The notes under the pieces are model-generated. The model made no database searches, was not told where the DNA came from, and worked only from the letters and a program-made list of their open reading frames with translations. A stretch of 64,000 bases of DNA from Rubripirellula sp. (GTDB lineage Bacteria > Planctomycetota > Planctomycetia > Pirellulales > Pirellulaceae), in NCBI GenBank assembly GCA_965216875.1, contig OZ244207.1, positions 352,001 to 416,000 on the forward strand, given 5' to 3'. How positions within the stretch are numbered: position 1 is the stretch's first letter; each line of letters opens with the position of its first letter. Shown here one piece after another: positions 34,817 through 49,911 of this stretch. The position numbers and the translations under genes are program-made.

Positions 34817-35344
34817 TTAGTTAACCAGTTTCTGACGGGAGATCGTGCGTTCAACACAGCGTTGTAACGAACCACGAATTCGCGCTAGACGTTTGTAAAT
34901 GGTGCTTTCTGGGGCGCCCGATGCGTTTGCAAGCCGATGGACGTTTTCGCCTTCGAGGTACCGGCGTTCAATCAATTCACGATCGGGTAGCGGCAACTTT
35001 TTGAGGCATTGGCGAACCATGTCAAATCGTTGCTCTTCCTGACGCTCGATTTGTTCCATCGAAAGCGTCTCCATCAAGCTCTCGTCGAACCAAAGCCGAT
35101 CTCGGGCGTGGCGCTGTCGATAACGCAACACGCAGTTGTACGCGATGCCGCACGCCCAGGGCAGGAACTCTCGTTCCGGGTCGTACTTTTCCATCGACTG
35201 CCAGAGGGCGATCGAAACTTCCTGCATCAAATCATCGACGTCGCTTCGGTTGGACACGAGCGTTGTCAGGTAGCCGTAAATTCCCCATTGGTTTTTCGTC
35301 AAAAAGCAGACGAAATCCTCTTTGGATATCTGTACGGATGACAA
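34817..35344 (-). CDS. ECF sigma-70 family factor
   Basis: DVDDLMQEV, FLPWACGIAYN, C-terminal HTH TIYKRLARIRGSL; TTG start. Confidence 0.92.
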   Translation of the reverse strand: MSSVQISKEDFVCFLTKNQWGIYGYLTTLVSNRSDVDDLMQEVSIALWQSMEKYDPEREFLPWACGIAYNCVLRYRQRHARDRLWFDESLMETLSMEQIERQEEQRFDMVRQCLKKLPLPDRELIERRYLEGENVHRLANASGAPESTIYKRLARIRGSLQRCVERTISRQKLVN

Positions 35345-35395
35345 CGTGGAAACCCCAACAAAAACAGCCAGCAGTGGTGGTGGCGTGTGTCACTT

Positions 35396-35535
35396 GGCAA
35401 TGTGCAACGGTGTCGGCAACGTGCAACGGTGGCCGCAGCCGTGTTCGGTCGACCGTGACCCTCGCGACCGACATGCAGCGTTCATACGAATTGCACATCA
35501 ACTCAATGCGCCCTCGCGAACTCAATGCGCCCTCG
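35396..35535. repeat. Two pairs of 17-bp direct repeats, each with 19-bp period
   Basis: GGCAAYGTGCAACGGTG at 35396 and 35415; AACTCAATGCGCCCTCG at 35500 and 35519. Confidence 0.8.
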
Positions 35536-35843
35536 AGGCGAAATTGAGACGGGCTCTGGCACAGTAGACCCTGAGCAGCCTATTCCACAGTGCCGACGCC
35601 TTTTTGCCATTGAATCTTAGAAAAAAACAAAAACATGTCTTTTCTGAAACTTGCTGCAAATTTTTTGGCAATTTGAACACCCAGCGTTGAATACCGACCG
35701 GCGGATTTCACCCGCCTGAGTCACCCGTGTGACGCCCCCACTGTTGCGGGGACTTTTCTGATTCGATTCAGCGTTTTCCCGGGCACCTCATTCAGGGCTC
35801 GGTTTCATCTTTCTTCTGCAGACTTTTCTTTGAAGGTTTATCA

Positions 35844-37106
35844 ATGCAGTCAGTTCACCACAAACGCGCAGGGTTCACGCTCGTGGAACTGTTGGTGGTC
35901 ATTGCGATCATCGGCGTTCTTGTCGGGCTACTCCTGCCAGCTGTCCAAGCTGCTCGCGAAGCGGCAAGGCGGATGTCGTGCAGCAACAATTTCAAGCAAA
36001 TTGGGCTCGGCATTCACAACTACCATTCGGCATTCAAACAGCTGCCGACCAACATGACGGGCACCGACCGTGCCTACAACGGAGACATCACCTACAACAG
36101 CAGCCGGTTGAGATTGAGTTACCACGTTGCCTTGCTGCCCTACATCGAACAGCAAGCATTGTGGGAACAGATTTCCAATCCAAGCACCGATCTGGCACCT
36201 GGCGTCAATGCGATGCCCGGTCAAGTCACCAACGGAACTTGGCCGCCGATGGGGCCCGCGCCATGGCGTCAACAATACCGTCCATGGGCGACCAAGGTTC
36301 CGACGTTGCGTTGCCCAAGTGATCCAGGTCAAGGCGTGCAATTGGGACGCACCAACTACGCCGCCAGCTATGGTGATTCGTTCAACTATGCATGGAACGG
36401 TGGAAAGAACGAGCGTGGCTATGTCCAAAATGGCAACGGCGACGCCAACGACTTTGACGAAAACTGGATGGTGACTCGCGCTCAGGCGGGCCAGCGTGGT
36501 TTCTTCCGCGGTCGTACGGAAATGAAATTCCGCGACGTGCTCGACGGGCTGTCCAACACCGTCGCTGCTGGTGAAATCTGCACTTCACTTGGCCAGCGAG
36601 AAACAAAGGCTGATTACGTTCGTGGCTTGACCGCCTTGCTTTTCCCAGGTGGTGGTGAGCACATTGGTGTTCCGATCAACTGCGCTACGGGAACCCATAT
36701 CGATCCCGAACGCCCGTCGTTCTTCGCCGTTAGTGCGAACGTCAACGGCGGGATCAACAACGGGCGTGGCGCACGCTGGGCCGATGGGCGGATCGCCTAC
36801 AACGGTATTCAAACGATCTTGCCGCCCAACAGTCCAAGTTGCGTCCGGAACAACAGCGACGGCAACCATGGCTTCTGGAGTGTCAGTAGTCGTCACCAAG
36901 GTGGGGCTCACATTTTGATGGGCGACGGTGCGGTGATTTTTATGACCGACAGCGTCGAAGCGGGTGACCAGACTCAGCCAACGGTCTGTCGTAATGGGCC
37001 GAGTCCGTGGGTCAACATCGCTGGCGTTCAAAGTCCGTATGGGCTTTGGGGAGCGATGGGCTCTCGCGCTCACAAAGAAACGATCGAAGAAGAGCTCAAC
37101 CAATAG
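35844..37106 (+). CDS. DUF1559 family prepilin-type N-terminal cleavage/methylation protein
   Basis: GFTLVELLVVIAIIGVLVGLLLPAVQAAREAARRMSCSNN, RDVLDGLSNT, SRHQGGAHILMGDG (H-X9-DG). Confidence 0.95.
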   Translation: MQSVHHKRAGFTLVELLVVIAIIGVLVGLLLPAVQAAREAARRMSCSNNFKQIGLGIHNYHSAFKQLPTNMTGTDRAYNGDITYNSSRLRLSYHVALLPYIEQQALWEQISNPSTDLAPGVNAMPGQVTNGTWPPMGPAPWRQQYRPWATKVPTLRCPSDPGQGVQLGRTNYAASYGDSFNYAWNGGKNERGYVQNGNGDANDFDENWMVTRAQAGQRGFFRGRTEMKFRDVLDGLSNTVAAGEICTSLGQRETKADYVRGLTALLFPGGGEHIGVPINCATGTHIDPERPSFFAVSANVNGGINNGRGARWADGRIAYNGIQTILPPNSPSCVRNNSDGNHGFWSVSSRHQGGAHILMGDGAVIFMTDSVEAGDQTQPTVCRNGPSPWVNIAGVQSPYGLWGAMGSRAHKETIEEELNQ

Positions 37107-37138
37107 TCAGGTTGAGTTTTTACAGCAACGCTTACTCA

Positions 37139-37166
37139 ACACGTCGCCCGCGTGCGGGCGGCGTGT
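37139..37166 (+). promoter_or_regulatory. Intercistronic GC-rich stem-loop
   Basis: ACACGTCGCCCGC / GCGGGCGGCGTGT inverted repeat between the DUF1559 and lipoprotein genes. Confidence 0.5.
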
Positions 37167-37197
37167 GTTCCTTTGATTGGAAGAATTCAATAACACA

Positions 37198-37377
37198 ATG
37201 ACCAAACTGATCAACTTCGCAATGTTCACTCTCTGCGCCTTGGTTGTCGCAGGATGCTCAAGCAACACGCCTGTCGCTATCGAGCAGACGATGAGCCAAG
37301 AAGAAATCGACCGTATGGATGCTGAATACGAGGCCGAAATGGAAGCGGCCGAAAACGATACGCTTGGCGAAGGCTAA
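37198..37377 (+). CDS. Small acidic lipoprotein, DUF1559 partner
   Basis: MTKLINF...VVAGC lipobox; 59 aa. Confidence 0.8.
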   Translation: MTKLINFAMFTLCALVVAGCSSNTPVAIEQTMSQEEIDRMDAEYEAEMEAAENDTLGEG

Positions 37378-37516
37378 ACCAAACCCATTCGTACACACTC
37401 GCTGTGGTCAACACCGTTCGTAGTCCCGCTTTTGGGCGGATGATCCTGAGGATTCCGGCAGTGCAATCGCACTACGAACAGACGCCCAGCAACGAATCTC
37501 AGCCCCGACGCAACGA

Positions 37517-38812
37517 TCATTTGTTGCGTCGGGCTTTTTTCGAAATCGCAGCCAGCTTCCAGTATGCAGCAAGATGGAAGATCACCCCACAGCTGCTGTG
37601 CGCGGAATAGTCGATTCGCGCCATGACTTCCTCAAGGTGCGCTCTTTGCTCCGCGGTTGCCTCAGCATTCGGGCTCATCAGGGGTATCAACGCCGCCTCG
37701 CCCGCTTCGCGACTGACATGCCAGATACGGCGGTACTCGCCCCACTGCGGGTTTGGGTACGTGTCGAGGTTGATCCATTTCGGCACGTTGCGCCAGTTCG
37801 GTCCGAGCATCGCCAACTGCTCAGGCGTAAGCCCCTTGAGGGCAAGGTTCGTATGCCTTTGCCGCTCCAAGGCGAGTTCGCTGACGTGTTGCATCGTTGT
37901 TGCAATCTCAGCTCTAAGCTCTGGTTCGGGCTCAAGCTGATGAAGTAGCTCCAGTGAAGCTTGCATTTGTAGTAGGGCATAAGCAGGGTTGTGTTTGCTT
38001 GGAGCCTTCGATTGTTCACACGCATCGACGATGTATCGGCGCCATTGATCGTGGTACACAGGATTGCGTGTGACATCCCATGCCGCCGCATAGATCATGG
38101 GAAGTCTTGCTGCTTCGTGAGCCTGTACTTGCCACATGCGGCAGATCCCCAGCGGACATCGAGATCCGTCGGCGCGACCAAAGTCGTAGTTGTTCTCTGC
38201 TGTGACGAATTCGAGCATTCGATCCGCAACCTCCGAGAGGCGTGTTTTGATTTGCTGCTTTGTCGCATCGTCAGCAAGTCCACTGCGGTAGTACTTCCAA
38301 AGCCCATGCACAAAGTGGGTGTATTGGTCGCGCGATGAGTTGATGTAGACACTTTCGCCATCTTCTACACAGACATTCCTGGCAATGAAGCCAGGGACGT
38401 TGTGTACGGTGGCACATCGGTTCATGCCGCGAAAAACGCGTTTGGCTTTAGATTTCAAACTCGCGTCTGCGGTAACTGAATAGCGATCCGAAAGGGTGCT
38501 AAGCATGGCACCTCCAAGGATCATCCCGTCCTCCATTCCAGTGCTATAGCCGCATGGATTGGGGTATTGGCGTTTCACTTCATCAGCGCTGGGAAGGTGA
38601 GCAAGCTCGCGGCCATCGGAGTAGCTGCTCAAGTAGTCCATGAAGGTCTCGGTGCCGCTATGAAAAAAACGATTCCAAGTGACGTCCCAAGCCTGTTCGA
38701 CGCACGAAGGGGAGTGCGGAGGTTGGGCACGTGAGGGGGCGTCGTTGGTTAGCGCAATCGAGAGTGCGATCAACCAAGAAAATGGGGTCGGACGCGTAAA
38801 ACGAGTGATCAT
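37517..38812 (-). CDS. Secreted hypothetical protein, possibly (alpha/alpha)-barrel glycosidase-like
   Basis: Signal peptide; helical with aromatic-rich motifs (TGMED, GFIAR, SSRDQYTH). Start ATG 38812 or GTG 38839. Confidence 0.7.
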   Translation of the reverse strand: MITRFTRPTPFSWLIALSIALTNDAPSRAQPPHSPSCVEQAWDVTWNRFFHSGTETFMDYLSSYSDGRELAHLPSADEVKRQYPNPCGYSTGMEDGMILGGAMLSTLSDRYSVTADASLKSKAKRVFRGMNRCATVHNVPGFIARNVCVEDGESVYINSSRDQYTHFVHGLWKYYRSGLADDATKQQIKTRLSEVADRMLEFVTAENNYDFGRADGSRCPLGICRMWQVQAHEAARLPMIYAAAWDVTRNPVYHDQWRRYIVDACEQSKAPSKHNPAYALLQMQASLELLHQLEPEPELRAEIATTMQHVSELALERQRHTNLALKGLTPEQLAMLGPNWRNVPKWINLDTYPNPQWGEYRRIWHVSREAGEAALIPLMSPNAEATAEQRAHLEEVMARIDYSAHSSCGVIFHLAAYWKLAAISKKARRNK

Positions 38813-38895
38813 CGAGCTGTCGGGGCGAAAGGCAGGCACAGTTCAAGGCGGGCCCACATTTTAACCGCTCCTGAAACGAGTTCCCTGGGCTCAAG

Positions 38896-38932
38896 AAAAA
38901 CGCTCGCGGCAGCTGGGCTACCGCGAGCGTTT
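38896..38932 (-). terminator. Intrinsic terminator after the EF-Tu-like gene
   Basis: Stem AAACGCTCGCGG/CCGCGAGCGTTT ending in a T run on the minus strand, 20 nt past the stop. Confidence 0.8.
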
Positions 38933-38951
38933 CGCGTTTACCAATGATCGA

Positions 38952-40145
38952 CTAGTCGAGTACGCGGGTGACCACGCCTGAACCAACGGTGCGGCCGCCC
39001 TCGCGAATTGCGAAGCGGTCACCGTCACGAATCGCAATGGGTTGGCCAAGCGAAACATCGAGTTGAACGCCGTCGCCGGGCATCACCATGTCGATGCCAC
39101 CAAGCACGCGAGTTTTGCCCGTCACATTCGTCGTTCGAAAGAAGAATTGCGGTGTGTATCCGTCAAAGAACGGAGTGTGTCGACCGCCTTCTTCCTTCTT
39201 CAGCACGTACACTTCAGCCTCGAACCGTTGTCGCGGCATGATCGTGCCGGTAGCTGCCAAGACTTGCCCTTTGCAAATCATGTCATGGGCAGTCTTTCGC
39301 AAGAGCAGACCAACGCTGTCACCAGCTTGGCCGCTGCCCATTTCTTGACCGAACGATTCCACCTGAGTGACAACGTCGCGAGTCGGCTCGCTGGCGAGAC
39401 CAACGATCTCGATGTTGTCACCAGCTCGGACAATCCCCTGTTCGATCCGGCCGGTCACCACAGTCCCGCGTCCACCGATTGAGTAGACGTTTTCGACCGG
39501 CATCAACAATGGCTTGTCGACCGATCGAATGGGATCGGGAATCGCGTTGTCCAATGCAACAAGCAATTGCTCGATGCACTCGATCGCTTGCGGATCAGTA
39601 GGGTGATCGTGCGCGATCATCGCCGAACCTCGAATCACAGTGATGTCGTCACCGGGATACCCGAACTCGGACAGCAATTCACGCAGGTCCATCTCGACCA
39701 GGTCAAGCAACTCGGGGTCGTCGACCAGATCGCACTTGTTCATGAACACAACCAAATGGGGCACGCCAACTTGCCGTGCCAGCAGCAAGTGTTCGCGCGT
39801 TTGAGGCATCGGGCCATCGGCAGCCGATACCAACAACACCGCACCGTCCATCTGGGCAGCGCCGCTGATCATGTTCTTGATGTAGTCGGCGTGACCTGGG
39901 CAGTCGACATGCGCGTAGCGTCTGTTTTCAGTCTCATAACGAACGTGCGAAGCGATCACGGTGACTGTCTTGTTCTTGTCTCGAACAATACCTCCGCGCG
40001 CGATCGCCTCGTAGCTCTTGTAGTGGGCCAATCCCTTTTCGGACTGCACACGCAACAATGCCGAGGTCAAAGTCGTTTTTCCGTGGTCGATGTGACCGAT
40101 GGTGCCAACGTTGACAGCCGTCTTTTCGATAGCGATTTGAACCAT
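38952..40145 (-). CDS. tuf: Elongation factor Tu, divergent stand-alone copy (397 aa)
   Basis: [54 protein letters not shown] 10 nt before ATG 40145. Confidence 0.93.
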
Positions 40146-40317
40146 TGCTCGTAAACCTCCAGTTTCAAAGTGAACCGGTCGCGTCACTCGCCAGTGACCA
40201 AGGTGAGCAGCCTTGGAAACCTTTTTGCCCGCTCGGGCGCCAGAGGAACGACAACGACAACAAAGTGAATGGGATCCGGCGTATTTCACGCCATGCTTTG
40301 GGGACTTGATCACACAC

Positions 40318-40355
40318 AAAAAAAGCCCGCTCGATTTGCTCAATCGGGCGGGCTT
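40318..40355 (-). terminator. Intrinsic terminator in the tuf 5' leader (attenuator)
   Basis: Minus-strand RNA AAGCCCGC-C-CGAUU-GAGCA-AAUCG-A-GCGGGC-UUUUUUU, about 170 nt upstream of the tuf start. Confidence 0.85.
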
Positions 40356-40385
40356 GCGATTTGCGTCTCTTGCAATGCTCTTGCG

Positions 40386-40469
40386 TCAACACACACAACA
40401 TGCCAAGCCCGGCTCGACAGAAGACTGCGAGTCGGATGAGGAAGCTGGTGAGGATGACGAAGGTTGCAT
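40386..40469 (-). CDS. Putative Ser-rich leader peptide, 27 aa (MQPSSSSPASSSDSQSSVEPGLACCVC)
   Basis: Short ORF ending 30 nt before the terminator; codons 18-22 carry a near-copy of the terminator 3' arm; weak AAGG SD. Confidence 0.6.
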   Translation of the reverse strand: MQPSSSSPASSSDSQSSVEPGLACCVC

Positions 40470-40656
40470 TGCAAAGACCTTTTGCGGAGGTGTCTCCAAA
40501 CGTTGGATCGCAATGCCAGACACGATGCCGGCAAAAGGGTTCGCATCAGTTTCGAGATCACGGCGAACCACGTGCCGTCCTTGCGTGTCCCCTGCATTGG
40601 AATCGAACGACGACTTCGCAACCTTTTTCGTACGCTTTGATCAAGCGTTGACATCT

Positions 40657-41910
40657 ATGGCGAATTTTGACGCTGGTTTCTTCAGCAAAGTTCTCGGGGA
40701 CAATGGGGCCGCTCTCACACTTCGCGTCGAGCGTTACCTCCGTGACGCGACGCCCAACGACGCACTTGTCGCTTGCAGCGATCTCGATGTTGAACAATAC
40801 AGCAGCCTTGGTCATTGCAGCTTGAGGCCCACCGAATCTCCGCCGCCCCATTTTTGTCGCTACTGGGGTGGCGAGGACCATGACCAGCTCTTCAGCTCTT
40901 TTGAGCAGGTGGTTTGGGAAGTGGATTGGCAAGATCAAACGCTTCAAGTCGTGAGTGTGCAATGGGAAACCAGTTGCGGTAGCAGCAGTCGCGATTGGAT
41001 TGTTGCTTCCTCAATCGAACTTGCCGAGGCGTTCTTGTTAGATGTCGAGCGAAAGACACATGCACCCGGCGAAGCGATTCTCGTCTTCAAGAACGGCTAC
41101 TGGCGGCGCAGCAGTGCGTTGTTCGAAACGGTTCAGTCGTCTTCATTCGATGATCTCGTCCTCGCCGACGATCTTAAACGCGTTATTCGTCAAGACTTCA
41201 ACCAGTTTCTCAAATCGGAAACGCGTTACAACCAATTGGGGATCGCATGGCGCCGGGGTGCACTGCTAATTGGTCCGCCTGGCAACGGCAAGACTCATTG
41301 TGTCCGCGCGCTGATTAAAGAGCTCGATGTCCCGTGCCTCTACGTGCAAAGCCTTGCTCACAGTCACTACACAAGTGAGCAGATGTGGGACCAAGTGTTT
41401 AGCCGCGCGCGAGGCCTTCGCCCCTGCGTGTTGGTGTTGGAGGACTTTGATTCTCTGGTCGATGACGAGAATCGTTCGTTTTTCCTAAACCAGTTGGACG
41501 GGTTTCAACGCAATCACGGGATGATGATCTTGGCGACGACGAATCATGTCGACCGAATTGATTCATCGATCGTGGATCGTCCCAGTCGATTCGATCGAAA
41601 GTACCATTTTCGCATTCCAACCAAAGCTCAACGCAGCGAATTTTTCTCCGGTTGGCAAAAACGGTTGGCCCAAGAAACGGGCTGGGATGACTCCGATATC
41701 GATCATTTGGCGATGGTGACAGATGGTTTCTCCTTTGCCTATCTCAAAGAACTCGTCGTCAGTTCAGTGATGCAATGGATGCACGATTCGAATGAAGACT
41801 TCTCTGCCGTTGCTTCGGCACAAGCAAGTCTGCTTGGTGCTCAAATGAAGACCGAAGTCGATGCTCCACCCGTCCGCCGCAGACGGCGACGCGACCGAGG
41901 CAGCACGTAG
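40657..41910 (+). CDS. AAA+ ATPase with uncharacterised N-terminal domain (417 aa)
   Basis: RRGALLIGPPGNGKT, VLVLEDFD, ATTN, DRPSRFD. Start reassigned to ATG 40657. Confidence 0.9.
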   Translation: MANFDAGFFSKVLGDNGAALTLRVERYLRDATPNDALVACSDLDVEQYSSLGHCSLRPTESPPPHFCRYWGGEDHDQLFSSFEQVVWEVDWQDQTLQVVSVQWETSCGSSSRDWIVASSIELAEAFLLDVERKTHAPGEAILVFKNGYWRRSSALFETVQSSSFDDLVLADDLKRVIRQDFNQFLKSETRYNQLGIAWRRGALLIGPPGNGKTHCVRALIKELDVPCLYVQSLAHSHYTSEQMWDQVFSRARGLRPCVLVLEDFDSLVDDENRSFFLNQLDGFQRNHGMMILATTNHVDRIDSSIVDRPSRFDRKYHFRIPTKAQRSEFFSGWQKRLAQETGWDDSDIDHLAMVTDGFSFAYLKELVVSSVMQWMHDSNEDFSAVASAQASLLGAQMKTEVDAPPVRRRRRRDRGST

Positions 41911-42235
41911 GGTGTGTGCTTGCACGCACCATGCTACTGCGGAAAAAACATCGGTCCATGGATAGGCTTGCCCCACGTAGGGTGTGTGCTTGCACGCACC
42001 TCGCGACGAACTGCCGGCTATTGACCCGTGCTTGGCACACTTTGAGTACGCCTGGGATCAGTAGACAAAAAGAAGGTGGACAGAAAGATGAAGGCGGACG
42101 TGCTGGTTGCGACGTCGCTTTGTGGACAAGATCGATTGGCCACGAAAAGCACGAGAAGACACGAAAAGAGCCTCGCAAAAAACCAACGGTCCATGGGCAG
42201 GCTTGCCCTACGTAGGGTGTGTGCTTGCACGCACC
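41907..42235 (+). repeat. BIME-like cluster with three GTAG REP copies
   Basis: GTAGGGTGTGTGCTTGCACGCACC at 41907-41930, 41977-42000 and 42212-42235. Confidence 0.92.
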
Positions 42236-42242
42236 AAGAGAC

Positions 42243-43589
42243 CTACTTTGGGCTGCCGGGTTGATCGACGTAGACGGGCTCGGGCAGGTTGTCTGGTTTG
42301 CGGATCACGGTGGCTGAGAGGATTCGGTCTGGTGGCAGAACGACCTCGCCCTTCTCTTTCTTCTTGCTCGGGTCAACTCGGCGAAGCGACGAAATCACAT
42401 CCATCCCTTCGATCACTCGGCCGAAGACCGTTTGATGGATGGGGACTTGAGTCATGGGAAGGAACAAGATTGCGAATTGCGAGTTGCCTGAGTTGGGAAC
42501 GAATTTTCCGGTCTTTTCGATCGGCTGCTTGGCCAGCACAAGGGAGCCGCGAAAGGCGTTGCGGGCGTTGGGGTTAGCATGCTCGTCCTTGACGAACGGC
42601 CCCTGAACTTGCAGAGAGGTTCCGTTCCCTTTGTCACCGGTCAGTGCAAGCAGGTTGTCCATCACTTGGTAGAAATCAAGCTCGTCATAGAAACCGGTTT
42701 CGACCAATTTCAGGAAGTGGCTCACCGTTGACGGCGCGCTGTCGAGAAAAAGTTCGACGACAACCTCACCACGCGTGGTGACAAATTTGACCCTTGGCTG
42801 GTTGTCGAGTTCAGCCTCTTTGTCGCGGATCAGTTTCTCTTCGCGGTATTGTTCTTCGAATTTATCGATCTGGTGAAACAGAGCGCGATCAGGTTCATCA
42901 AACTGTTCCTGGTCGAGTGCTTCGTACAGCCGACGCGCGACTTCGAATTCACCCGACACGACCGCCGATCTTGCTGCGGCATGAAACAGGAAGAGTCGTG
43001 GCATGCCGTTCTGGATCAGGCGGGCTCCGCCCTCGGCAGTACTGTAGTTGTAAATGTTCTGTTTCCCGCGATGCTCGATCACGGTCATGATGTACTGGAT
43101 GGCGTCCCTGTCGGGCTTGAATTGCACGACGTCGATGGCAGCCCTGTAGACCTCTTCCATCAGCCGCCGCGATTCGTTGCGGTGTTTGCGGTAGGCCTCT
43201 TTCGCCTGCTTGCTGCGATCAACGTCATTCAAAAAACGAACGTGTAGCGCTCGCTGCTGGCCAAGCGACTCCTCGAGTTGTTTGCGTAGCTCAACGAAGC
43301 GCGCGTCCGCTTTGTCGGCTTCTTCGCGGTACTCTTCCGGCACCACGTAATCCTCAGGAGAAAGCTGTTGGTTTTCGGAAACGCTGACGCTGTCGTCGGC
43401 GAGTTCCGACGGAGGAAGCGGCGCGGATTCGTCGGCCGATTGCGGCAACCCCGTGGTGGGCTTGGTGCCAGCGCGATCAAAAGACGGGTCCTGACTCGAG
43501 CCGTTTTCGGCAAGACCCAAGAGCGTGGCGAGGCAGACGCCCCCGATGAGGTGTAGGGGATGTCGTTTGACGCTGGCGAACAGAGACAT
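42243..43589 (-). CDS. Exported cyclophilin-type peptidyl-prolyl isomerase-like protein with helical N-terminal domain
   Basis: TTRGEVVVELF..AP.TV..F..LV..GFYD, SGNSQF, TVFGRVIEGMDVI. Start set at ATG 43589. Confidence 0.85.
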   Translation of the reverse strand: MSLFASVKRHPLHLIGGVCLATLLGLAENGSSQDPSFDRAGTKPTTGLPQSADESAPLPPSELADDSVSVSENQQLSPEDYVVPEEYREEADKADARFVELRKQLEESLGQQRALHVRFLNDVDRSKQAKEAYRKHRNESRRLMEEVYRAAIDVVQFKPDRDAIQYIMTVIEHRGKQNIYNYSTAEGGARLIQNGMPRLFLFHAAARSAVVSGEFEVARRLYEALDQEQFDEPDRALFHQIDKFEEQYREEKLIRDKEAELDNQPRVKFVTTRGEVVVELFLDSAPSTVSHFLKLVETGFYDELDFYQVMDNLLALTGDKGNGTSLQVQGPFVKDEHANPNARNAFRGSLVLAKQPIEKTGKFVPNSGNSQFAILFLPMTQVPIHQTVFGRVIEGMDVISSLRRVDPSKKKEKGEVVLPPDRILSATVIRKPDNLPEPVYVDQPGSPK

Positions 43590-43757
43590 GGAAAGGGAAC
43601 CTGGGGCAAAAACAGGGACGGGCCATCGGGAAAAAAGACCCAACTCGACTGCTACGCAGCGAGGAAGCGATCGGTTTTCCACCTGCGGGCAATCTCGCCA
43701 AGAAAGTGACAATCAAGGTCCTTCTCGGCTCTGGAGGGCACTTTATACTAGGGCCTC

Positions 43758-44444
43758 ATGAACGGAAAACGTAGCAAAAAAGGAAAGGCGACGCCCGCAA
43801 AACTGCGGGTCATTGGTGGCGATCTGCGCGGTCGCCCGATCGAATACCACGGCGAGGAATTCACTCGCCCGATGAAAGACAATATCCGCGAAAACCTATT
43901 CAATATTCTTGGTCGCGCGGTTCGCGGGGCACGTTGCTTTGACCTTTTCGCGGGCACGGGGGCTCTTGCGATTGAGTCGATTTCGCGGGGAGCCATTGCC
44001 TCGATTGCCGTCGAACGCAACCGCATGGCTAGTCGCGTGATCGCGAAAAATGCAGACCGCTTGCCTCTCGGCGACAAGCTGCAGGTCTTGACCGGCGATA
44101 CCTTTCAAATCGGGCCGCAATTGCTCGCCCCGCCGACCGATGACACGCCGTGGATCGTCTACCTTTGCCCTCCCTACGTGCTGTGGGAAGAATCGCTTGA
44201 TCCACTTTGCAAATTGATTCAGCTAACGCTCGACAACGCTCCTCCAGGCAGCGTTTTGGTTGCCGAGACCGAAAAGCGTTTTGATCACGACCGATTGCCT
44301 GCTGGCGATTGGGATCTCCGCGAATATGGTGGTACGCGACTCGCATTCATCGAGCCAGCGATGCGATGCGGGCTTGAGCTCGACGCGTGTGACACCATCG
44401 ACTTCGCGACCGACCAATCCGATCACGAATCCCACCTCGACTAA
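43758..44444 (+). CDS. rsmD: RsmD-family rRNA methyltransferase
   Basis: LRVIGG, TRP....RENLFNIL, DLFAGTGALAIESISRGA, CPPY. Confidence 0.9.
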   Translation: MNGKRSKKGKATPAKLRVIGGDLRGRPIEYHGEEFTRPMKDNIRENLFNILGRAVRGARCFDLFAGTGALAIESISRGAIASIAVERNRMASRVIAKNADRLPLGDKLQVLTGDTFQIGPQLLAPPTDDTPWIVYLCPPYVLWEESLDPLCKLIQLTLDNAPPGSVLVAETEKRFDHDRLPAGDWDLREYGGTRLAFIEPAMRCGLELDACDTIDFATDQSDHESHLD

Positions 44445-44477
44445 CCCGCCTTCCCTTTTCCCGCCTGGACCAAAACC

Positions 44478-46568
44478 ATGAAGAACGCTGCGTTTGCAGT
44501 CGGCGTCATCGTTGCGCTTGCACTTCTTTCTCACTCACGAACGTTTGCTGACCAACCATCCGTCGACGCCGACGTCGTGATCTATGGGAACACGTCCGCC
44601 GGCGTGATCACTGCTGTGCAAGTTGCCAAGATGAATCGGTCCGTCATCCTGGTTGGCCCGGACAAACACCTCGGTGGCCTTTCCTCAGGCGGTCTCGGTT
44701 GGACGGACTCAGGCAAGAAAGAAACCATCGGTGGGCTCGCTCGCGATTTCTACCACCGCGTTTGGAAGCACTACGACCGATCGGACGCGTGGCGTTGGCA
44801 AAAGAAAGAAGCGTATGGCAATCGTGGCCAGGGGACAGCAGCGATCGACAAGGACCAACGGACGATGTGGATTTTCGAGCCCCATGTTGCCGAGACGATT
44901 TTTGAAGACTTGATCCGCGAAAACGAGATCACGCTCTTTCGCGACCAATGGCTCGATCGTGATTCGGGTGTCACCAAATCGGACGGTCGCATTCGCGAAA
45001 TTCGCATGCTTAGCGGCAAAGCGTTTCGCGCCAAAATGTTCATCGATGCAACGTACGAAGGTGACCTGCTTGCTGCTGCGGGAATCGACTACCACGTCGG
45101 ACGCGAAGGAAAGGATGTCTACGGCGAACGCTGGAACGGAGTGCAGGTGGGTGTGCTGCACCACAAGCATTGGTTTCAAGCCCCGGTCAGTGCCTATGTG
45201 GTTCCCGGTGATCCGACCAGCGGAGTGTTACCCAAAATCTCGACCGAACCACCTGGAACGAAAGGCGAAAGTGACAAACGTGTTCAAGCCTATTGTTTTC
45301 GCATGTGCCTAACGAACGTTGACGAGAACCGCGTGCCGTTTGCGAAGCCTGATGGCTACGATCCTGCACAGTACGAATTGTTGCGCCGCGTCTTTGCCTC
45401 GGGGTGGCGGGAGGTTTTTAACAAGTTCGACCCCATCCCCAATGGCAAGACCGACACAAACAACCACGGTCCGTTTAGCACCGACAATATCGGAATGAAC
45501 TACGACTATCCCGACGGCAGCTACGAGCGCCGCAAGGAAATCATCGCCGAGCACCGTCAGTACCAGCAGGGTTTGATGTACTTCTTGGCCAACGATCCAA
45601 GCGTTCCCGAAGACATCCGCAGCAAGATGATTACCTGGGGATTGTCAAAGGACGAGTTCAAGGACAATGGGAATTGGCCGCACCAGATTTATGTTCGCGA
45701 AGCCCGTCGCATGGTGGGTAAGCATGTGATGACCGAACACGATTGCATGGGAGCTCGCGAGGTGACCGACTCGGTTGGCATGGGCTCTTACACGCTCGAC
45801 TCGCACAATGTTCAACGTTACATCAAACCTGATGGTACCGTTCAAAACGAAGGCGACATCGGTGTGCATCCCGGCCGTCCCTATCGCATCTCGTACGCGA
45901 GTTTGGTCCCCAAGAAACAGCAGTGCGAGAACCTTTTGGTCCCGGTTTGCCTGTCGAGTTCGCACATCGCATTCGGATCGATTCGCATGGAGCCTGTGTT
46001 CATGATTCTAGGTCAATCGGCGGCGACGGCAGCGGTGATGTCGATCGAACAAGAGATCGCAGTTCAAGACCTCCAATACAACGCTCTCTCAAAGCGATTA
46101 AAAGCGGACAAGCAAGTGCTGGTCTACGACGGCCCGGCCGTTTCGCATGGCGGCATTGATCCCCGGGAACTCGAGGGCATCGTGCTCGATGATCGCAAAG
46201 CCAAGAAGACAGGAACGTGGTCGGAAAGTCACGCCGTTGGGCCGTTTGTCGGTTCGGGCTATTTGCACGATGGTGACCAAGACAAGGGGAAGTCGGCGAT
46301 TCAATGGACCGTCGAACTTCCCAAGGCAGGACGTTACGAAGTGCGAGTAGCCTACTCGCCGAACCAAAATCGCGCCGCTGCCGTGAAGGTCTCGGTCGGT
46401 GATTCAGGCGTTGCGATCAACCAACGCAAGAAACCCGCAATCGACGGCCTTTGGCATTCGTTGGGCGTTTTCGAGTTGAGTGATTCGGTGACCATTCGAA
46501 TCAGCAACCAAGGGACCACCGGGCATGTGATCGCAGACGCGGTCCAGCTGATTCCTCGCGGGCAATGA
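44478..46568 (+). CDS. Secreted FAD-dependent oxidoreductase with C-terminal carbohydrate-binding-like (golvesin/xanthan lyase-type) domain
   Basis: DVVIYG, GGLSSGGLG, FIDATYEGDL, YVREARR, SSSHIAFGSIRMEP; C-terminal VIADAVQL. Confidence 0.88.
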   Translation: MKNAAFAVGVIVALALLSHSRTFADQPSVDADVVIYGNTSAGVITAVQVAKMNRSVILVGPDKHLGGLSSGGLGWTDSGKKETIGGLARDFYHRVWKHYDRSDAWRWQKKEAYGNRGQGTAAIDKDQRTMWIFEPHVAETIFEDLIRENEITLFRDQWLDRDSGVTKSDGRIREIRMLSGKAFRAKMFIDATYEGDLLAAAGIDYHVGREGKDVYGERWNGVQVGVLHHKHWFQAPVSAYVVPGDPTSGVLPKISTEPPGTKGESDKRVQAYCFRMCLTNVDENRVPFAKPDGYDPAQYELLRRVFASGWREVFNKFDPIPNGKTDTNNHGPFSTDNIGMNYDYPDGSYERRKEIIAEHRQYQQGLMYFLANDPSVPEDIRSKMITWGLSKDEFKDNGNWPHQIYVREARRMVGKHVMTEHDCMGAREVTDSVGMGSYTLDSHNVQRYIKPDGTVQNEGDIGVHPGRPYRISYASLVPKKQQCENLLVPVCLSSSHIAFGSIRMEPVFMILGQSAATAAVMSIEQEIAVQDLQYNALSKRLKADKQVLVYDGPAVSHGGIDPRELEGIVLDDRKAKKTGTWSESHAVGPFVGSGYLHDGDQDKGKSAIQWTVELPKAGRYEVRVAYSPNQNRAAAVKVSVGDSGVAINQRKKPAIDGLWHSLGVFELSDSVTIRISNQGTTGHVIADAVQLIPRGQ

Positions 46569-46593
46569 GGATTGTGAGCGGCAAGACGCTAGC

Positions 46594-46829
46594 CGCTCAG
46601 GAAGATTGGTGCGTGCAAGCACACACCCTACGAAATTCGGTAGTGCCTGTGAGCCGCTGGCCGTGAGGCCTCGGGCCCTTGCCGACTGGATCGGCGATCG
46701 CTCAGGAAGATTGGTGCGTGCAAGCACACACCCTACGAAATTCGGTAGTGGCCGTGAGTCCTCGGGCCCTTGCCCATCGGATCGGCGATCGCTCAGGAAG
46801 ATTGGTGCGTGCAAGCACACACCCTACGA
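46594..46829 (-). repeat. Tandem BIME-like cluster: three 40-bp units containing the GTAG REP
   Basis: CGCTCAGGAAGATTGGTGCGTGCAAGCACACACCCTACGA at 46594, 46699 and 46790; the spacers resemble each other. Confidence 0.92.
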
Positions 46830-48614
46830 TTGTCCGAGTGATTCGGCGAAGGCGGCTTTGAGTTTTTCGAGGGCTTCGGCGCCTTTGGAGGCGTCGATGA
46901 CGGCGTTCACTTGCAACTCACTGGTGTTGATCATTTCGACATTGATGTTGCAAGCGGCCAGTTGTTCGAAAAGCAGCGTTGCGACATGGGTGTGACTGCG
47001 AAGGCCAATTCCGCTGACCGTCACTTTGGTGATGTCGCCTGCACCTTGAACATCGCGCATGCCATGTTTGGATTGGATTTCTTTGCCAACCGCAACGCTT
47101 TGATCCAGGTCGTCTGCATTGACCGTGAAGCTGACGCTGGTGGAACCGTCTTCGCCATCGTAGCCTTGGACAATCATGTCCACAAAGATGTCCGCTTGCC
47201 CAATCGTTTCGAACATGTCTGCGGCGATGCCCGGATGATCGGGCACGCCATGTAAGGTGACGCGAGCTTGTCCCTCGGTAAGTGAAATGCCGGTCAAGGT
47301 AAGGGCTTCGAGTTCGTCGTCTCGCAGTCGCGCGACCAACGTTTCGACGTCCGCCTTTTCGCGGTCGGCTTTGATCTCGCTCCACGATTTGGCATCATCT
47401 GGACGCTGGTGAAGCGAAAAGGCTTCGTGAACGGCACGCAACGCATCGGCAGCTTGATCGCGCGGCACGAGTGCTGACGTTTTGATTTCGCTTGTCGTGA
47501 TCATTTGAATGTTCACGTTGGCATCGGCAAGTGCGCGAAACATCTGCGAGGCGACGGCGGTCTGGGTGGCCATGTTCAAGCCAACCGCCGACACTTTGGA
47601 GACTTGGTCATCATGCGTGATGCCTTGCGCGCCAACTTCTTCCATCACCGCTTCGACGGCCGCAATCGTCGTCTCGAGTTCGGCACTTGGCACGGTGAAC
47701 GAAACATCGGCGCGCCCTTCGTTTCCGACGTTTTGCACGACCATGTCGACAGCGATCTTGCGTTTGGCGATTGCTGAGAAAATCTGCAAGCTCTTACCCG
47801 GGACGTCTGGCACGCCAAGGACGGTGACGCGAGCTTCATCGGGAGTAAGTGCCGCGCCGCTGACCGGTTGGGTCGACGATTCCGCTTCGGCAACAATCAT
47901 CGTCCCTTCGGTGTCCGAAAAGCTGCTGCGAACATGGATCGGCACACCGAACTTTTTGGCGAATTCGATCGAACGGCTGTGCATCACACCCGCTCCGAGG
48001 CTGGCCAGTTCAAGCATCTCGTCGTAACTGATGACTTCGACGCGACGGGCTTCGGGCAACTTGCGCGGGTCGGTTGTGTAGACGCCGTCCACATCGGTGT
48101 AGATTTCACAGGCATCGGCACCCAAAACAGCGGCCAAGGCGACGGCGGTTGTGTCGCTGCCACCGCGACCGAGTGTGGTGATGTTCAAATCGTCGTCGAT
48201 ACCTTGGAATCCTGCGGCAACCACGATGTTGCCTTCTTCGAGTAGCCGTTCGATCCGTTCGGTGCTGATCGATTGGATGCGTGCCTTGGAAAAGCTATTG
48301 TCGGTCTTCATGCCGATTTGACCGCCAGTCAGACTGACCGCTTTGGCGCCCAGGTCGTGGATCGCCATGGCAACCAGTGCAACACTGACTTGTTCGCCGG
48401 TGCTTAGCAGCATGTCCATTTCGCGAGCCGACGGTTTTTCGCATACGTCGCTTGCCAAGCCGAGCAACAGGTCGGTGTTTTTGCCCATTGCGCTGACAAC
48501 CATCACGACTTGATGACCTTGGCGCTGAGCGCGAATCGCTTTGCGTGCGGCGGCTCGAATCTTTTCCACATCGGCAACGCTGGTGCCGCCGAACTTTTGA
48601 ACAATCAGAGACAT
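46824..48614 (-). CDS. lysC: Aspartate kinase with duplicated ACT regions
   Basis: VQKFGGTSV, VVSAMG, TTLGRGGSD, IYTDVDG; two ACT-pair repeats. Confidence 0.95.
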   Translation of the reverse strand: MSLIVQKFGGTSVADVEKIRAAARKAIRAQRQGHQVVMVVSAMGKNTDLLLGLASDVCEKPSAREMDMLLSTGEQVSVALVAMAIHDLGAKAVSLTGGQIGMKTDNSFSKARIQSISTERIERLLEEGNIVVAAGFQGIDDDLNITTLGRGGSDTTAVALAAVLGADACEIYTDVDGVYTTDPRKLPEARRVEVISYDEMLELASLGAGVMHSRSIEFAKKFGVPIHVRSSFSDTEGTMIVAEAESSTQPVSGAALTPDEARVTVLGVPDVPGKSLQIFSAIAKRKIAVDMVVQNVGNEGRADVSFTVPSAELETTIAAVEAVMEEVGAQGITHDDQVSKVSAVGLNMATQTAVASQMFRALADANVNIQMITTSEIKTSALVPRDQAADALRAVHEAFSLHQRPDDAKSWSEIKADREKADVETLVARLRDDELEALTLTGISLTEGQARVTLHGVPDHPGIAADMFETIGQADIFVDMIVQGYDGEDGSTSVSFTVNADDLDQSVAVGKEIQSKHGMRDVQGAGDITKVTVSGIGLRSHTHVATLLFEQLAACNINVEMINTSELQVNAVIDASKGAEALEKLKAAFAESLGQS

Positions 48615-48690
48615 TGAATTTCTAGGTACGACAAATCGGAATCAATAAACTGGAATCGGTGCGTTCAATAGACGAAGGCTTCGAGAGCCA

Positions 48691-49911
48691 TCATCCTTTG
48701 ATGAACGCGTCCATCAAGTCCCATCCATGATCAAAACGACGACCGCTCGCTTCGGCGGCGACCTCGTCGTAAGTCTCCTGCGAGTCGGTCTCGACGCCCG
48801 TGCCATTGATCACCAGCGGAACCATGCCGTGGCTGTGTTTTTTGGTGCTGCAGCGTGTTGGATGGTCTGGGGTCACCAGAATCCGGTGATCACCATGTTG
48901 TTTGAGCGCCTCGGTCAAGGGCACGACGATGTGCTTTTCAATCTCTTCGAGCGCTTCGATCTTGGCGTCGTGTCGGCCTTCGTGGGAAGCTTCGTCAGGC
49001 GCTTCGATGTGAATGCAAACAACGTCATAGTCGTTGAGGGCTTCGACGGCGGCGCGTCCTTTGGCGGCATAGTCGGTGTCGAGGTAGCCGGTGGCACCTT
49101 CGACTTCGATTCGTGGCCAGCCAACCAGTGCACCGATCCCTCGCAGCAGGTCGACCGCCGTAATCATCACGCCGCGAACGCCATAACGTTCTTCGAACGA
49201 CGGAAGATTGGGAGCGCCGCCGAGACCCCAAAGCCACAAATTGGTGACCGGGCGCTTGCCGTCGGCGATTCGTTTTTGGTTGACGGGATGGTTGGCAAAC
49301 AGCTCGGCCGATTCGCTCATCAGACGGACCAGCGTGTCACTGCCAGGACCACGTGGGAAATCATCACTGACACTCAGGTCGGTGAGATCGTGCGGGGCCG
49401 AGGTGCGAGTTTCTTTGGAAAAGGGTGCTGGGGTCGATGCGTCGCCGCGATAGATCAAGAGGTTGCGATAGCTGACGCCAGGGACGAACTCCATGCGAGA
49501 ATCGATCGGGCCATCGCCGAGCAATTCTTGCTGGGCCGCTTCCAGGAGTGCTTTGCCTTCCTCGCTGGTGACGTGATCGGCGGTAAAGTCGACCATGATC
49601 TGGTCTTGAATCGTTACCAGATTGCATCGGACCGCCCAATCGTGAGGGCCAAGGGTGACGCCTTGTGCGGCAGCTTCGAGCGGCGCGCGTCCGGTGAAAT
49701 AGACGTCCGGGTCGTAGCCGAGCAGGCACAGGTTCGCAACTTCGCTGCCAGCGGGAAGGTGGTCGGGCGTGTTGTTGGCTGCAGCAACCATGCCGCCTTT
49801 GGCCAGGGCATCGAGTGCCGGCAAATTGGCTGCCTGGAGCGGAGTCTTACCACCGAGTTCTTCAATGGGATCGTCGGCGCACCCGTCGGGGATGACGATT
49901 ACGTATTTCAT
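48691..49911 (-). CDS. Cofactor-independent phosphoglycerate mutase family (ApgM-like) protein, possible homoserine kinase
   Basis: PDGCAD, GKTPL, GSEVANL, GRAPLEA, APDEASH, DH; directly upstream of lysC. Start ATG 49911. Confidence 0.88.
   Translation of the reverse strand: MKYVIVIPDGCADDPIEELGGKTPLQAANLPALDALAKGGMVAAANNTPDHLPAGSEVANLCLLGYDPDVYFTGRAPLEAAAQGVTLGPHDWAVRCNLVTIQDQIMVDFTADHVTSEEGKALLEAAQQELLGDGPIDSRMEFVPGVSYRNLLIYRGDASTPAPFSKETRTSAPHDLTDLSVSDDFPRGPGSDTLVRLMSESAELFANHPVNQKRIADGKRPVTNLWLWGLGGAPNLPSFEERYGVRGVMITAVDLLRGIGALVGWPRIEVEGATGYLDTDYAAKGRAAVEALNDYDVVCIHIEAPDEASHEGRHDAKIEALEEIEKHIVVPLTEALKQHGDHRILVTPDHPTRCSTKKHSHGMVPLVINGTGVETDSQETYDEVAAEASGRRFDHGWDLMDAFIKG

Follow-up and report, generated by a model that had tools for sequence, protein, structure and literature searches.

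Why would a planctomycete that has a housekeeping gene for the elongation factor EF-Tu also carry a second, divergent copy, and what determines when that copy is made? The question, which bears on the purpose of spare EF-Tu genes, is raised by a 64,000-nucleotide stretch of Rubripirellula sp. DNA (assembly GCA_965216875.1, contig OZ244207.1, positions 352,001 to 416,000; hereafter, the window, whose own numbering is used below). On its minus strand, an accessory tuf gene is preceded by a short upstream open reading frame (uORF), an intrinsic terminator, and a structured spacer. An initial annotation, made from the letters of the window, had proposed an attenuator with a Ser-rich leader peptide at this locus. 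We propose that a two-layer stress switch governs the accessory EF-Tu and assign this reading a probability of roughly 70%. In the first layer, a ribosome-mediated transcription attenuator would sense slow elongation on the uORF; in the second, a separate RNA would close the tuf ribosome-binding site. The elements of the first layer and the gene itself are as follows.

40518..40542, minus strand: promoter-like motif, GAACC-N14-GTGTCT, from coordinates and conservation.
40365..40478, minus strand: long anti-antiterminator hairpin of the untranslated leader, from a minimum free energy fold; both the antiterminator strand and the AUG of the uORF are buried in it.
40469-40386 (ATG at 40469, TGA ending at 40386), minus strand: leader uORF of 27 codons, MQPSSSSPASSSDSQSSVEPGLACCVC, from reading of the frame.
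40419..40460, minus strand: Ser-rich (UCN), G-poor stretch, codons 4 to 17, the proposed stall sensor, from codon counts and a stall scan.
40417-40405, minus strand: antiterminator strand UCGAGCCGGGCUU, codons 18 to 22, predicted from sequence and folding to pair with the terminator 5′ arm.
40355-40318, minus strand: intrinsic terminator with U7, −21.2 kcal/mol.
40145-38952, minus strand: accessory paralogue of EF-Tu (397 aa) with a shortened N-terminus and intact GTPase motifs, from NCBIfam and a motif check.

The 27-codon frame described in the initial annotation is present base for base, and its serine count was exact on recount: serine occupies codons 4 to 7, 10 to 12, 14, 16, and 17 (10 of the first 17 codons), every time as a UCN codon. 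The terminator is likewise found 30 nt past the uORF stop. The near-copy of the terminator 3′ arm within codons 18 to 22 is also there, and its predicted duplex with the 5′ arm reaches −15.7 kcal/mol, vs −9.0 ± 1.8 kcal/mol for 300 dinucleotide shuffles (p = 0.003). The minus strand of 40300-40480, which had been put forward for folding, gave a z score of −5.9, with 0/200 shuffles equally stable. That tuf follows the terminator holds for the order and fails for direct adjacency: 172 nt separate the terminator from the tuf AUG, and this spacer contains a second conserved RNA structure. The second RNA, the anti-antiterminator hairpin, and the upstream promoter motif were all absent from the initial annotation. 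Candidates considered and rejected were a second uORF inside the spacer, the frame of which is broken by indels, and a 463-aa version of tuf extended far upstream in frame, which is not conserved (open frames of 394 to 486 aa). Four RNA runs bearing the same species label have essentially no cover of positions 35000-49000 of the window and are therefore evidence neither way.

The paralogue and its leader recur together. A protein-only search found the paralogue in 5/60 relatives, each with a uORF and a matching terminator. A profile of 12 paralogues then gave 41 matches in 39/401 family genomes, 29 with a leader as in the window (type A), 11 with a different 5′ RNA and an EF-Tu starting MAK (type B), and 1 without upstream sequence; the uORF and terminator are present in 29/29 of the type-A matches. 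In a second family, 201 genomes yielded 6 matches, of which 4 were type A, 1 was type B, and 1 was a housekeeping copy, and a phylum-wide draw yielded 4/401 at a strict threshold. Named records with the paralogue are Stieleria, Rubripirellula, Rhodopirellula, and metagenome-assembled genomes of Planctomycetota. Across 40 type-A loci, the terminator is kept in 40/40, a uORF of 18 to 29 codons lies at the matching place in 39/40, and the promoter motif is found in 37/40. The locus that departs from the uORF pattern (L044) has a frameshifted tuf, and its uORF runs into the terminator. The identical script, applied as a control to the other tuf loci with enough flank, reported a uORF plus terminator at 1/92, and that locus (L115) is itself a paralogue. 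A metagenome scan with the paralogue alignment supplied 80 loci, mostly housekeeping tuf, which served as controls and included L115 as one paralogue among them. A GTDB pattern scan gave 54 matches, of which 18 were at tuf (all Planctomycetota) and 1 was a remnant (L101); the 35 without tuf or other parts were taken as chance.

Folding indicates that the position of the ribosome on the uORF would decide which structure forms. In the naked window RNA, the antiterminator has a probability of 0.00, and the long hairpin at 40478-40365 blocks it. For the stall scan, the RNA was masked to 15 nt beyond each P-site codon and folded as a cotranscriptional intermediate; in this in silico setting, the antiterminator was available with the ribosome at codons 1 to about 14 or 15 and was lost between codons 14 and 19 in 20/20 leaders, a geometry that stays constant while Ser count and uORF length vary. 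The AUG-to-arm distance is 95 to 116 nt across 20 non-redundant leaders. The 5′ arm, 3′ arm, and antiterminator change together from CCCGCC/GGCGGG to CCCGUC/GACGGG in L041 and L113, which belong to two lineages, and L112, congeneric with L113, keeps the common arm form. Conservation, reading frame, placement, and covariation all speak for the attenuator layout of the initial annotation. The combination of a conserved uORF and terminator, mutually exclusive covarying structures, and a position-dependent switch makes the window leader a well-supported candidate, on comparative evidence, for a ribosome-mediated transcription attenuator.

In the mechanism that we propose for this first layer, transcription would start near 40510 from a promoter of the extracytoplasmic function (ECF) type, and a coupled ribosome would translate the uORF. 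A ribosome that has passed codon ∼16 to 18 would cover the antiterminator strand, and the terminator would form. If the ribosome slows at codons ∼1 to 15, the strand at codons 18 to 22 would pair with the 5′ arm ahead of synthesis of the 3′ arm, letting transcription continue into tuf. The signal would be slow elongation generally, whether from scarce active ternary complex, tRNA damage, or inhibitors of the ribosome or of EF-Tu. The paralogue would then provide EF-Tu function when translation is under stress, as EF-Tu3 does in Streptomyces.

The second layer lies in the 172-nt spacer and comprises the following elements.

40174..40258, minus strand: three-way-junction RNA consisting of P1, an unpaired UGG(C), P2, an A-rich joiner, and P3, from covariation.
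40221-40193, minus strand: P3, 11 bp, with an invariant 7-nt loop, CUGCUCA, at 40210-40204, from the alignment.
40147..40178, minus strand: Shine-Dalgarno (SD) hairpin, SD GGAGG at 40160-40156; in 21/22, half or more of the SD is base-paired.
40150-40147, minus strand: invariant GAGC, complementary to the P3 loop (putative pseudoknot), from the alignment.

A pattern derived from the spacer gave 25 matches in 24/401 genomes (5 for the reversed control), and 22 of them lie directly before the paralogue. When 21 non-redundant copies were aligned, 89.5% of cells were paired and 20/32 pairs showed compensatory change, with covariation in both P1 and P3; 0/500 shuffles reach these values, and slid controls reach 28 to 49%. 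Covariation thus demonstrates the predicted structure, and its G-U pairs place the structured strand on the tuf strand. The GAGC at −5 to −2 of the AUG is invariant in the alignment and was also seen in each of the 19 type-A loci that a protein-only search had first brought up, whereas GAGC-N-AUG occurs at 2/768 SD-anchored starts in the genome. It is complementary to GCUC in the loop; the loop-to-GAGC distance (49 to 55 nt) and the length of P3 (11 bp) are fixed. A covariance model found 1 copy in the window's genome and 8 copies across 151 genomes of the class, of which 7 precede the paralogue and 1 belongs to a complete leader that has lost tuf. It found nothing in type-B loci (best score, 10.9 bits) or housekeeping loci. 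Rfam gave 0 gathering-level matches in the window and nothing relevant at the E-value level (best, 19.4 bits vs a cutoff of 41), and none of its matches lay over 40174-40258. The junction RNA, the SD hairpin, and the loop-GAGC pairing would together keep the tuf initiation region closed, acting as a translational operator.

Partial copies of the leader were also observed. In L101, the junction RNA and promoter motif are retained and tuf consists of its last codons only, fused to the SD region, apparently by internal deletion. Decaying copies include L250, a complete leader without tuf, and L248, where unrelated sequence stands in place of the uORF.

The second RNA might instead be a constitutive structure (an mRNA stabilizer, a processing site, or a dampener of initiation) or a mere antisense terminator, which is possible and not the explanation that we favor. 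The stems alone could stabilize the RNA, and 40198-40216 on the plus strand scored as terminator-like. The antisense terminator, P3 on the plus strand, was rejected because the many G-U pairs of the tuf strand (18/21 at one P3 pair, for example) would become A-C mismatches; such a terminator also leaves P1, the junction, the invariant loop, and the GAGC unexplained. A metabolite riboswitch, responding for instance to a guanine nucleotide or an alarmone with the loop-RBS (ribosome-binding site) pseudoknot as its expression platform, is somewhat less probable. Its layout would resemble that of translational riboswitches, and the invariant junction nucleotides (UGG, the A-tract, and the C-G closing pairs), the fixed P3, and the fixed loop-GAGC distance are what such an RNA would display. 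The junction RNA precedes one gene only, whereas riboswitch classes usually serve several gene families, and no Rfam family matched it. Because the RNA occurs only before the accessory tuf, EF-Tu itself is its likeliest partner, in an autogenous control that we put forward tentatively. Mimicry of an anticodon loop or T loop by the 7-nt loop was rejected, neither consensus fitting it.

A more speculative extension is an AND gate that would read EF-Tu function twice: the uORF would sense slow elongation, and free active EF-Tu would bind the junction RNA and clamp the loop-GAGC pseudoknot. The spare EF-Tu would then be made only if ribosomes stall and the housekeeping EF-Tu has lost tRNA binding through a drug, a toxin, or tRNA damage. 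The 11-bp arm with its 7-nt loop is close in size to the acceptor/T half of a tRNA. If true, EF-Tu would here have its first structured mRNA operator, or else the RNA would found a new class of riboswitch, and the leader would stand at the head of a planctomycete regulon for translation stress in which tRNA arrays, too, are opened by similar attenuators.

Several observations weigh against the two-layer switch. A clear SD was not seen for the window uORF, and several uORFs have none. The antiterminator duplex differs from shuffles at p < 0.05 in only 11/20 non-redundant leaders, and in 13/20 homologues, where the anti-antiterminator is weaker, the antiterminator forms even without a ribosome, so blocking by the long hairpin is not universal. 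In the full-length leader at equilibrium, folding usually favors the terminator even with a stalled ribosome; because it wins for most stall positions, the switch must be kinetic. The 11 type-B paralogues have a different 5′ RNA, and in several of them there is no uORF next to tuf. The four core pairs of the pseudoknot never vary, so covariation is silent on them and the pseudoknot is putative; the pairs next to this core are kept in no more than 13 and 8 of the 21 copies, with one compensated flanking pair (L224). Genome-wide, the promoter motif is modestly enriched, with 25 occurrences at spacing 14 vs 4 to 19 at other spacings, and 10/40 sites (spacing 14 to 15) were chosen by eye for annotation. 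The genomes compared include relatives that are not independent of one another.

The serine codons bear on what the uORF would sense. A Ser-Ser or Ser-Pro word stands in frame with the AUG in 20/20 non-redundant leaders (49/51 occurrences), and codons 2 to 16 of these leaders hold 115/300 Ser vs 55 ± 6 in 1,000 dinucleotide shuffles (z = 10). The excess is wholly UCN (106 vs 47.6 ± 5.5; for AGY, 9 vs 7.4 ± 2.3), and UCA alone stands at 52 vs 20 ± 4, though across the genome it accounts for 11% of Ser codons. Among the other residues, Asp and Phe are in excess, and Leu, His, Ile, and Arg are depleted. Serine peaks at codons 9 to 15, just ahead of the switch point. Orthologue alignment, as the initial annotation had suggested, found the uORF and covarying stems conserved; the Ser run as such is not, the count per leader ranging from 2 to 10 with Thr, Asn, Phe, and Asp filling the gaps.

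A classical Ser-specific attenuator, responding to uncharged UCN-reading tRNA-Ser, would fit the in-frame UCN enrichment and the placement of the Ser peak right before the switch point. The window's genome does contain a classical attenuator, a Leu-rich leader peptide and terminator (G000:C1, 5482455, minus strand) before a gene that we take, from its sequence alone, to be leuA-like. In Bacillus subtilis, UCN codons slow selectively under serine starvation (PMC3862929). A purely Ser-specific leader is nevertheless unlikely. Three of the 20 leaders hold only 2 or 3 Ser, the target is EF-Tu rather than serine biosynthesis, serine transport, or SerRS, and the scarcity of G, which is needed to keep the stretch from pairing with the C-rich arm, by itself disfavors AGY. 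General stalling with a serine bias is the likelier reading, because the Ser count varies and any stall at codons ∼1 to 15 works in folding. The earlier proposal that a stall in the Ser run frees the antiterminator agrees with folding, in which a stall elsewhere in these codons would do as well, and Ser-tRNA shortage would be one likely input. The UCN codons would make the leader most sensitive to the supply of seryl-tRNA, as alanine codons do in whiB7, whose alanine-rich uORF responds to many kinds of starvation as its codons dictate (PMC10274678).

A drug-tuned leader, with Ser and Thr serving chloramphenicol-type arrest or with a response to EF-Tu inhibitors that the paralogue resists, is less likely still. 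Otherwise conserved domain-2 residues are altered in the paralogues (GRIERG to GKIEQG and TGVEMF to TQVESF) at what we take to be contact positions for pulvomycin and GE2270A; the kirromycin-linked motif RFAIREGG is unchanged. Ser, Thr, and Ala together make up 55% of codons 2 to 16, and penultimate Ala, Ser, and Thr favor chloramphenicol arrest (10.1101/2021.06.17.448903). Ala, the best arrest context, is not enriched (5 vs 9.2), and an altered EF-Tu would not relieve chloramphenicol arrest. Streptomyces EF-Tu3 is stress expressed and GE2270A resistant (PMC12309360). Finally, an untranslated uORF within an RNA-only or Rho-dependent switch, its codon pattern a by-product of C/U-rich pairing strands, would suit the G-poor, C-rich 5′ half that pairs with a G/U-rich 3′ half and the several uORFs without an SD, and it is highly improbable given the frame lock in 20/20 leaders despite indels, the absence of frame-0 stops, and the Ser excess over dinucleotide shuffles.

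The product of the accessory gene is a divergent EF-Tu, as had been claimed: it scores 559 bits against an NCBIfam EF-Tu cutoff of 522, retains intact G1, G3, and G4 motifs, and is 62 to 64% identical to the housekeeping EF-Tu, whose gene lies after tRNA genes at another place on the genome. A quick tree of 66 proteins groups the 32 type-A and type-B paralogues on one branch (Shimodaira-Hasegawa-like approximate likelihood ratio test, SH-aLRT, 98) inside the Planctomycetia EF-Tu, and the deepest branch of this clade carries type-A leaders. Within this comparison with the housekeeping EF-Tu of Planctomycetia, the nesting of the paralogues points to a possible origin separate from actEF-Tu/EF-Tu3. 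Two paralogue matches per genome were seen in G408 and G069. Upstream of tuf, the type-B loci (L215-L218, L220, L221, L226, L227, and L229-L232) carry a conserved hairpin of another kind, its loop reading YUGGCAA; a uORF is present in some (in L231 together with a terminator), several follow an RbfA-like gene, and one follows Ro60. A pairing between this loop and codon 2 is weakly supported, since codon 2 is GCC in 12/12 type-B genes but also at 16/23 readable housekeeping starts.

The mechanism proposed for the first layer has known counterparts. Classical amino-acid attenuators (trp, leu, his, and thr) share its four-segment layout and its codons enriched for one amino acid, but tuf is not biosynthetic and the number of control codons is not conserved; the Rfam Trp_leader and Leu_leader models score 19 and 16 bits vs cutoffs of 41 and 50. 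Closer in kind is the whiB7/wblC leader of Actinobacteria (PMC10274678), where a variable uORF rich in one amino acid (Ala there, Ser here) controls an antiterminator/terminator pair and read-through follows ribosome stalling from starvation or drugs, as we propose here. That leader, however, controls a transcription factor, has a longer uORF and unrelated sequence, and has no three-way-junction RNA at the next RBS. The vmlR leader of B. subtilis (PMC9226507) likewise joins a uORF, anti-antiterminator, antiterminator, and intrinsic terminator in multilayered control of a translation-stress gene; there, in contrast, the stall is drug specific on a short uORF, the target is an ABCF protein, and the tuf leader has as its second layer a separate structured RNA.

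Structured 5′ RNAs that serve one gene family and close the initiation region are familiar from the autoregulatory leaders of ribosomal proteins and from translational riboswitches with RBS pseudoknots; the second RNA differs in having no Rfam match. A precedent for a tuf gene whose own mRNA reports the speed of translation is Salmonella tufB, whose autoregulation, as Brandis reportedly described in 2016, involves the first tufB codons and Rho, with no uORF or intrinsic terminator, in a housekeeping gene. At the level of the protein, the closest parallel is Streptomyces tuf3/actEF-Tu, a divergent, dispensable-looking second EF-Tu tied to translational stress (PMC4342817, PMC7157823, PMC12309360). 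Streptomyces tuf3 is activated by WblC at its promoter (PMC7157823), whereas the accessory paralogue carries its own candidate attenuator and, in the quick tree, arose within Planctomycetia EF-Tu. According to a 2015 survey of translational GTPases, actEF-Tu was the only distinct bacterial EF-Tu subfamily (PMC4342817), and an attenuator survey mentions tuf only within the rpsL operon (PMC2965389).

The initial annotation knew of no leader-peptide attenuator on tuf, and our search of the open-licence literature found none either; nor did it find a distinct planctomycete EF-Tu paralogue or the junction RNA. As far as that search goes, the attenuation mechanism is already known from whiB7 and vmlR, and the target and the second RNA would be new. 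The locus would bring a core elongation factor under the direct control of an attenuator that senses stalling. Its gene defines a distinct family of bacterial EF-Tu paralogues, the second besides that of Actinobacteria, and at its ribosome-binding site stands an RNA motif that covaries strongly, is not yet catalogued, and invites an in vitro search for a ligand.

The promoter motif suggests a wider set of genes. GAACY-N14/15-GTGTC lies 150 to 235 nt upstream of the terminator in the 37 type-A leaders that have it; it is putatively ECF-sigma-like. A sigma-70 promoter scan found none. The sites chosen by eye precede an EF-G paralogue, an AAA kinase with Thg1, KptA, a metallo-beta-lactamase-fold protein, and a metallophosphoesterase, as well as DUF4291, a PcfJ-like protein, a 2OG-Fe oxygenase, and an ECF sigma operon. 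Motif sites lie in G000:C1 at 978766, 1437064, 1847276, and 2300134 (plus strand) and at 6271624, 7142654, 1585715, 383248, and 3737084 (minus strand). The motif-bearing translation and RNA-repair genes form a possible translation/RNA-damage regulon. Four sets of tRNA genes, namely two arrays, a further group, and a single tRNA-Leu, likewise follow a related motif with a uORF of 28 to 52 codons and a terminator (uORFs in G000:C1, minus strand, at 594904, 632966, ∼608330, and 1045176). In these leaders, which are candidate stall-sensing attenuators, the antiterminator overlaps the uORF stop codon. Long tRNA arrays in Anabaena are induced by ribosome-targeting drugs (PMC8421152). The shared motif and the similar tRNA-array leaders offer a testable picture of Planctomycetes rebuilding translation under ribosome or tRNA damage. 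At G000:C1 7747973 (plus strand), the promoter motif is followed by a tRNA-like sequence that is absent from the ARAGORN list and lies opposite a tRNA-Val.

The neighbors of the accessory tuf vary. Just downstream, a 440-aa protein (37517-38839, minus strand) has no Pfam or NCBIfam match. On the other side lies one further feature.

40657-41910, plus strand: divergent AAA ATPase gene, with its own copy of the promoter motif at 40565-40590.

This motif copy overlaps the tuf promoter region, and the AAA ATPase is not conserved beside orthologues. Among 69 proteins at 26 orthologous loci, some loci adjoin RlaP, RNA ligase, Ro60, Macro, or RbfA-like genes, and most do not.
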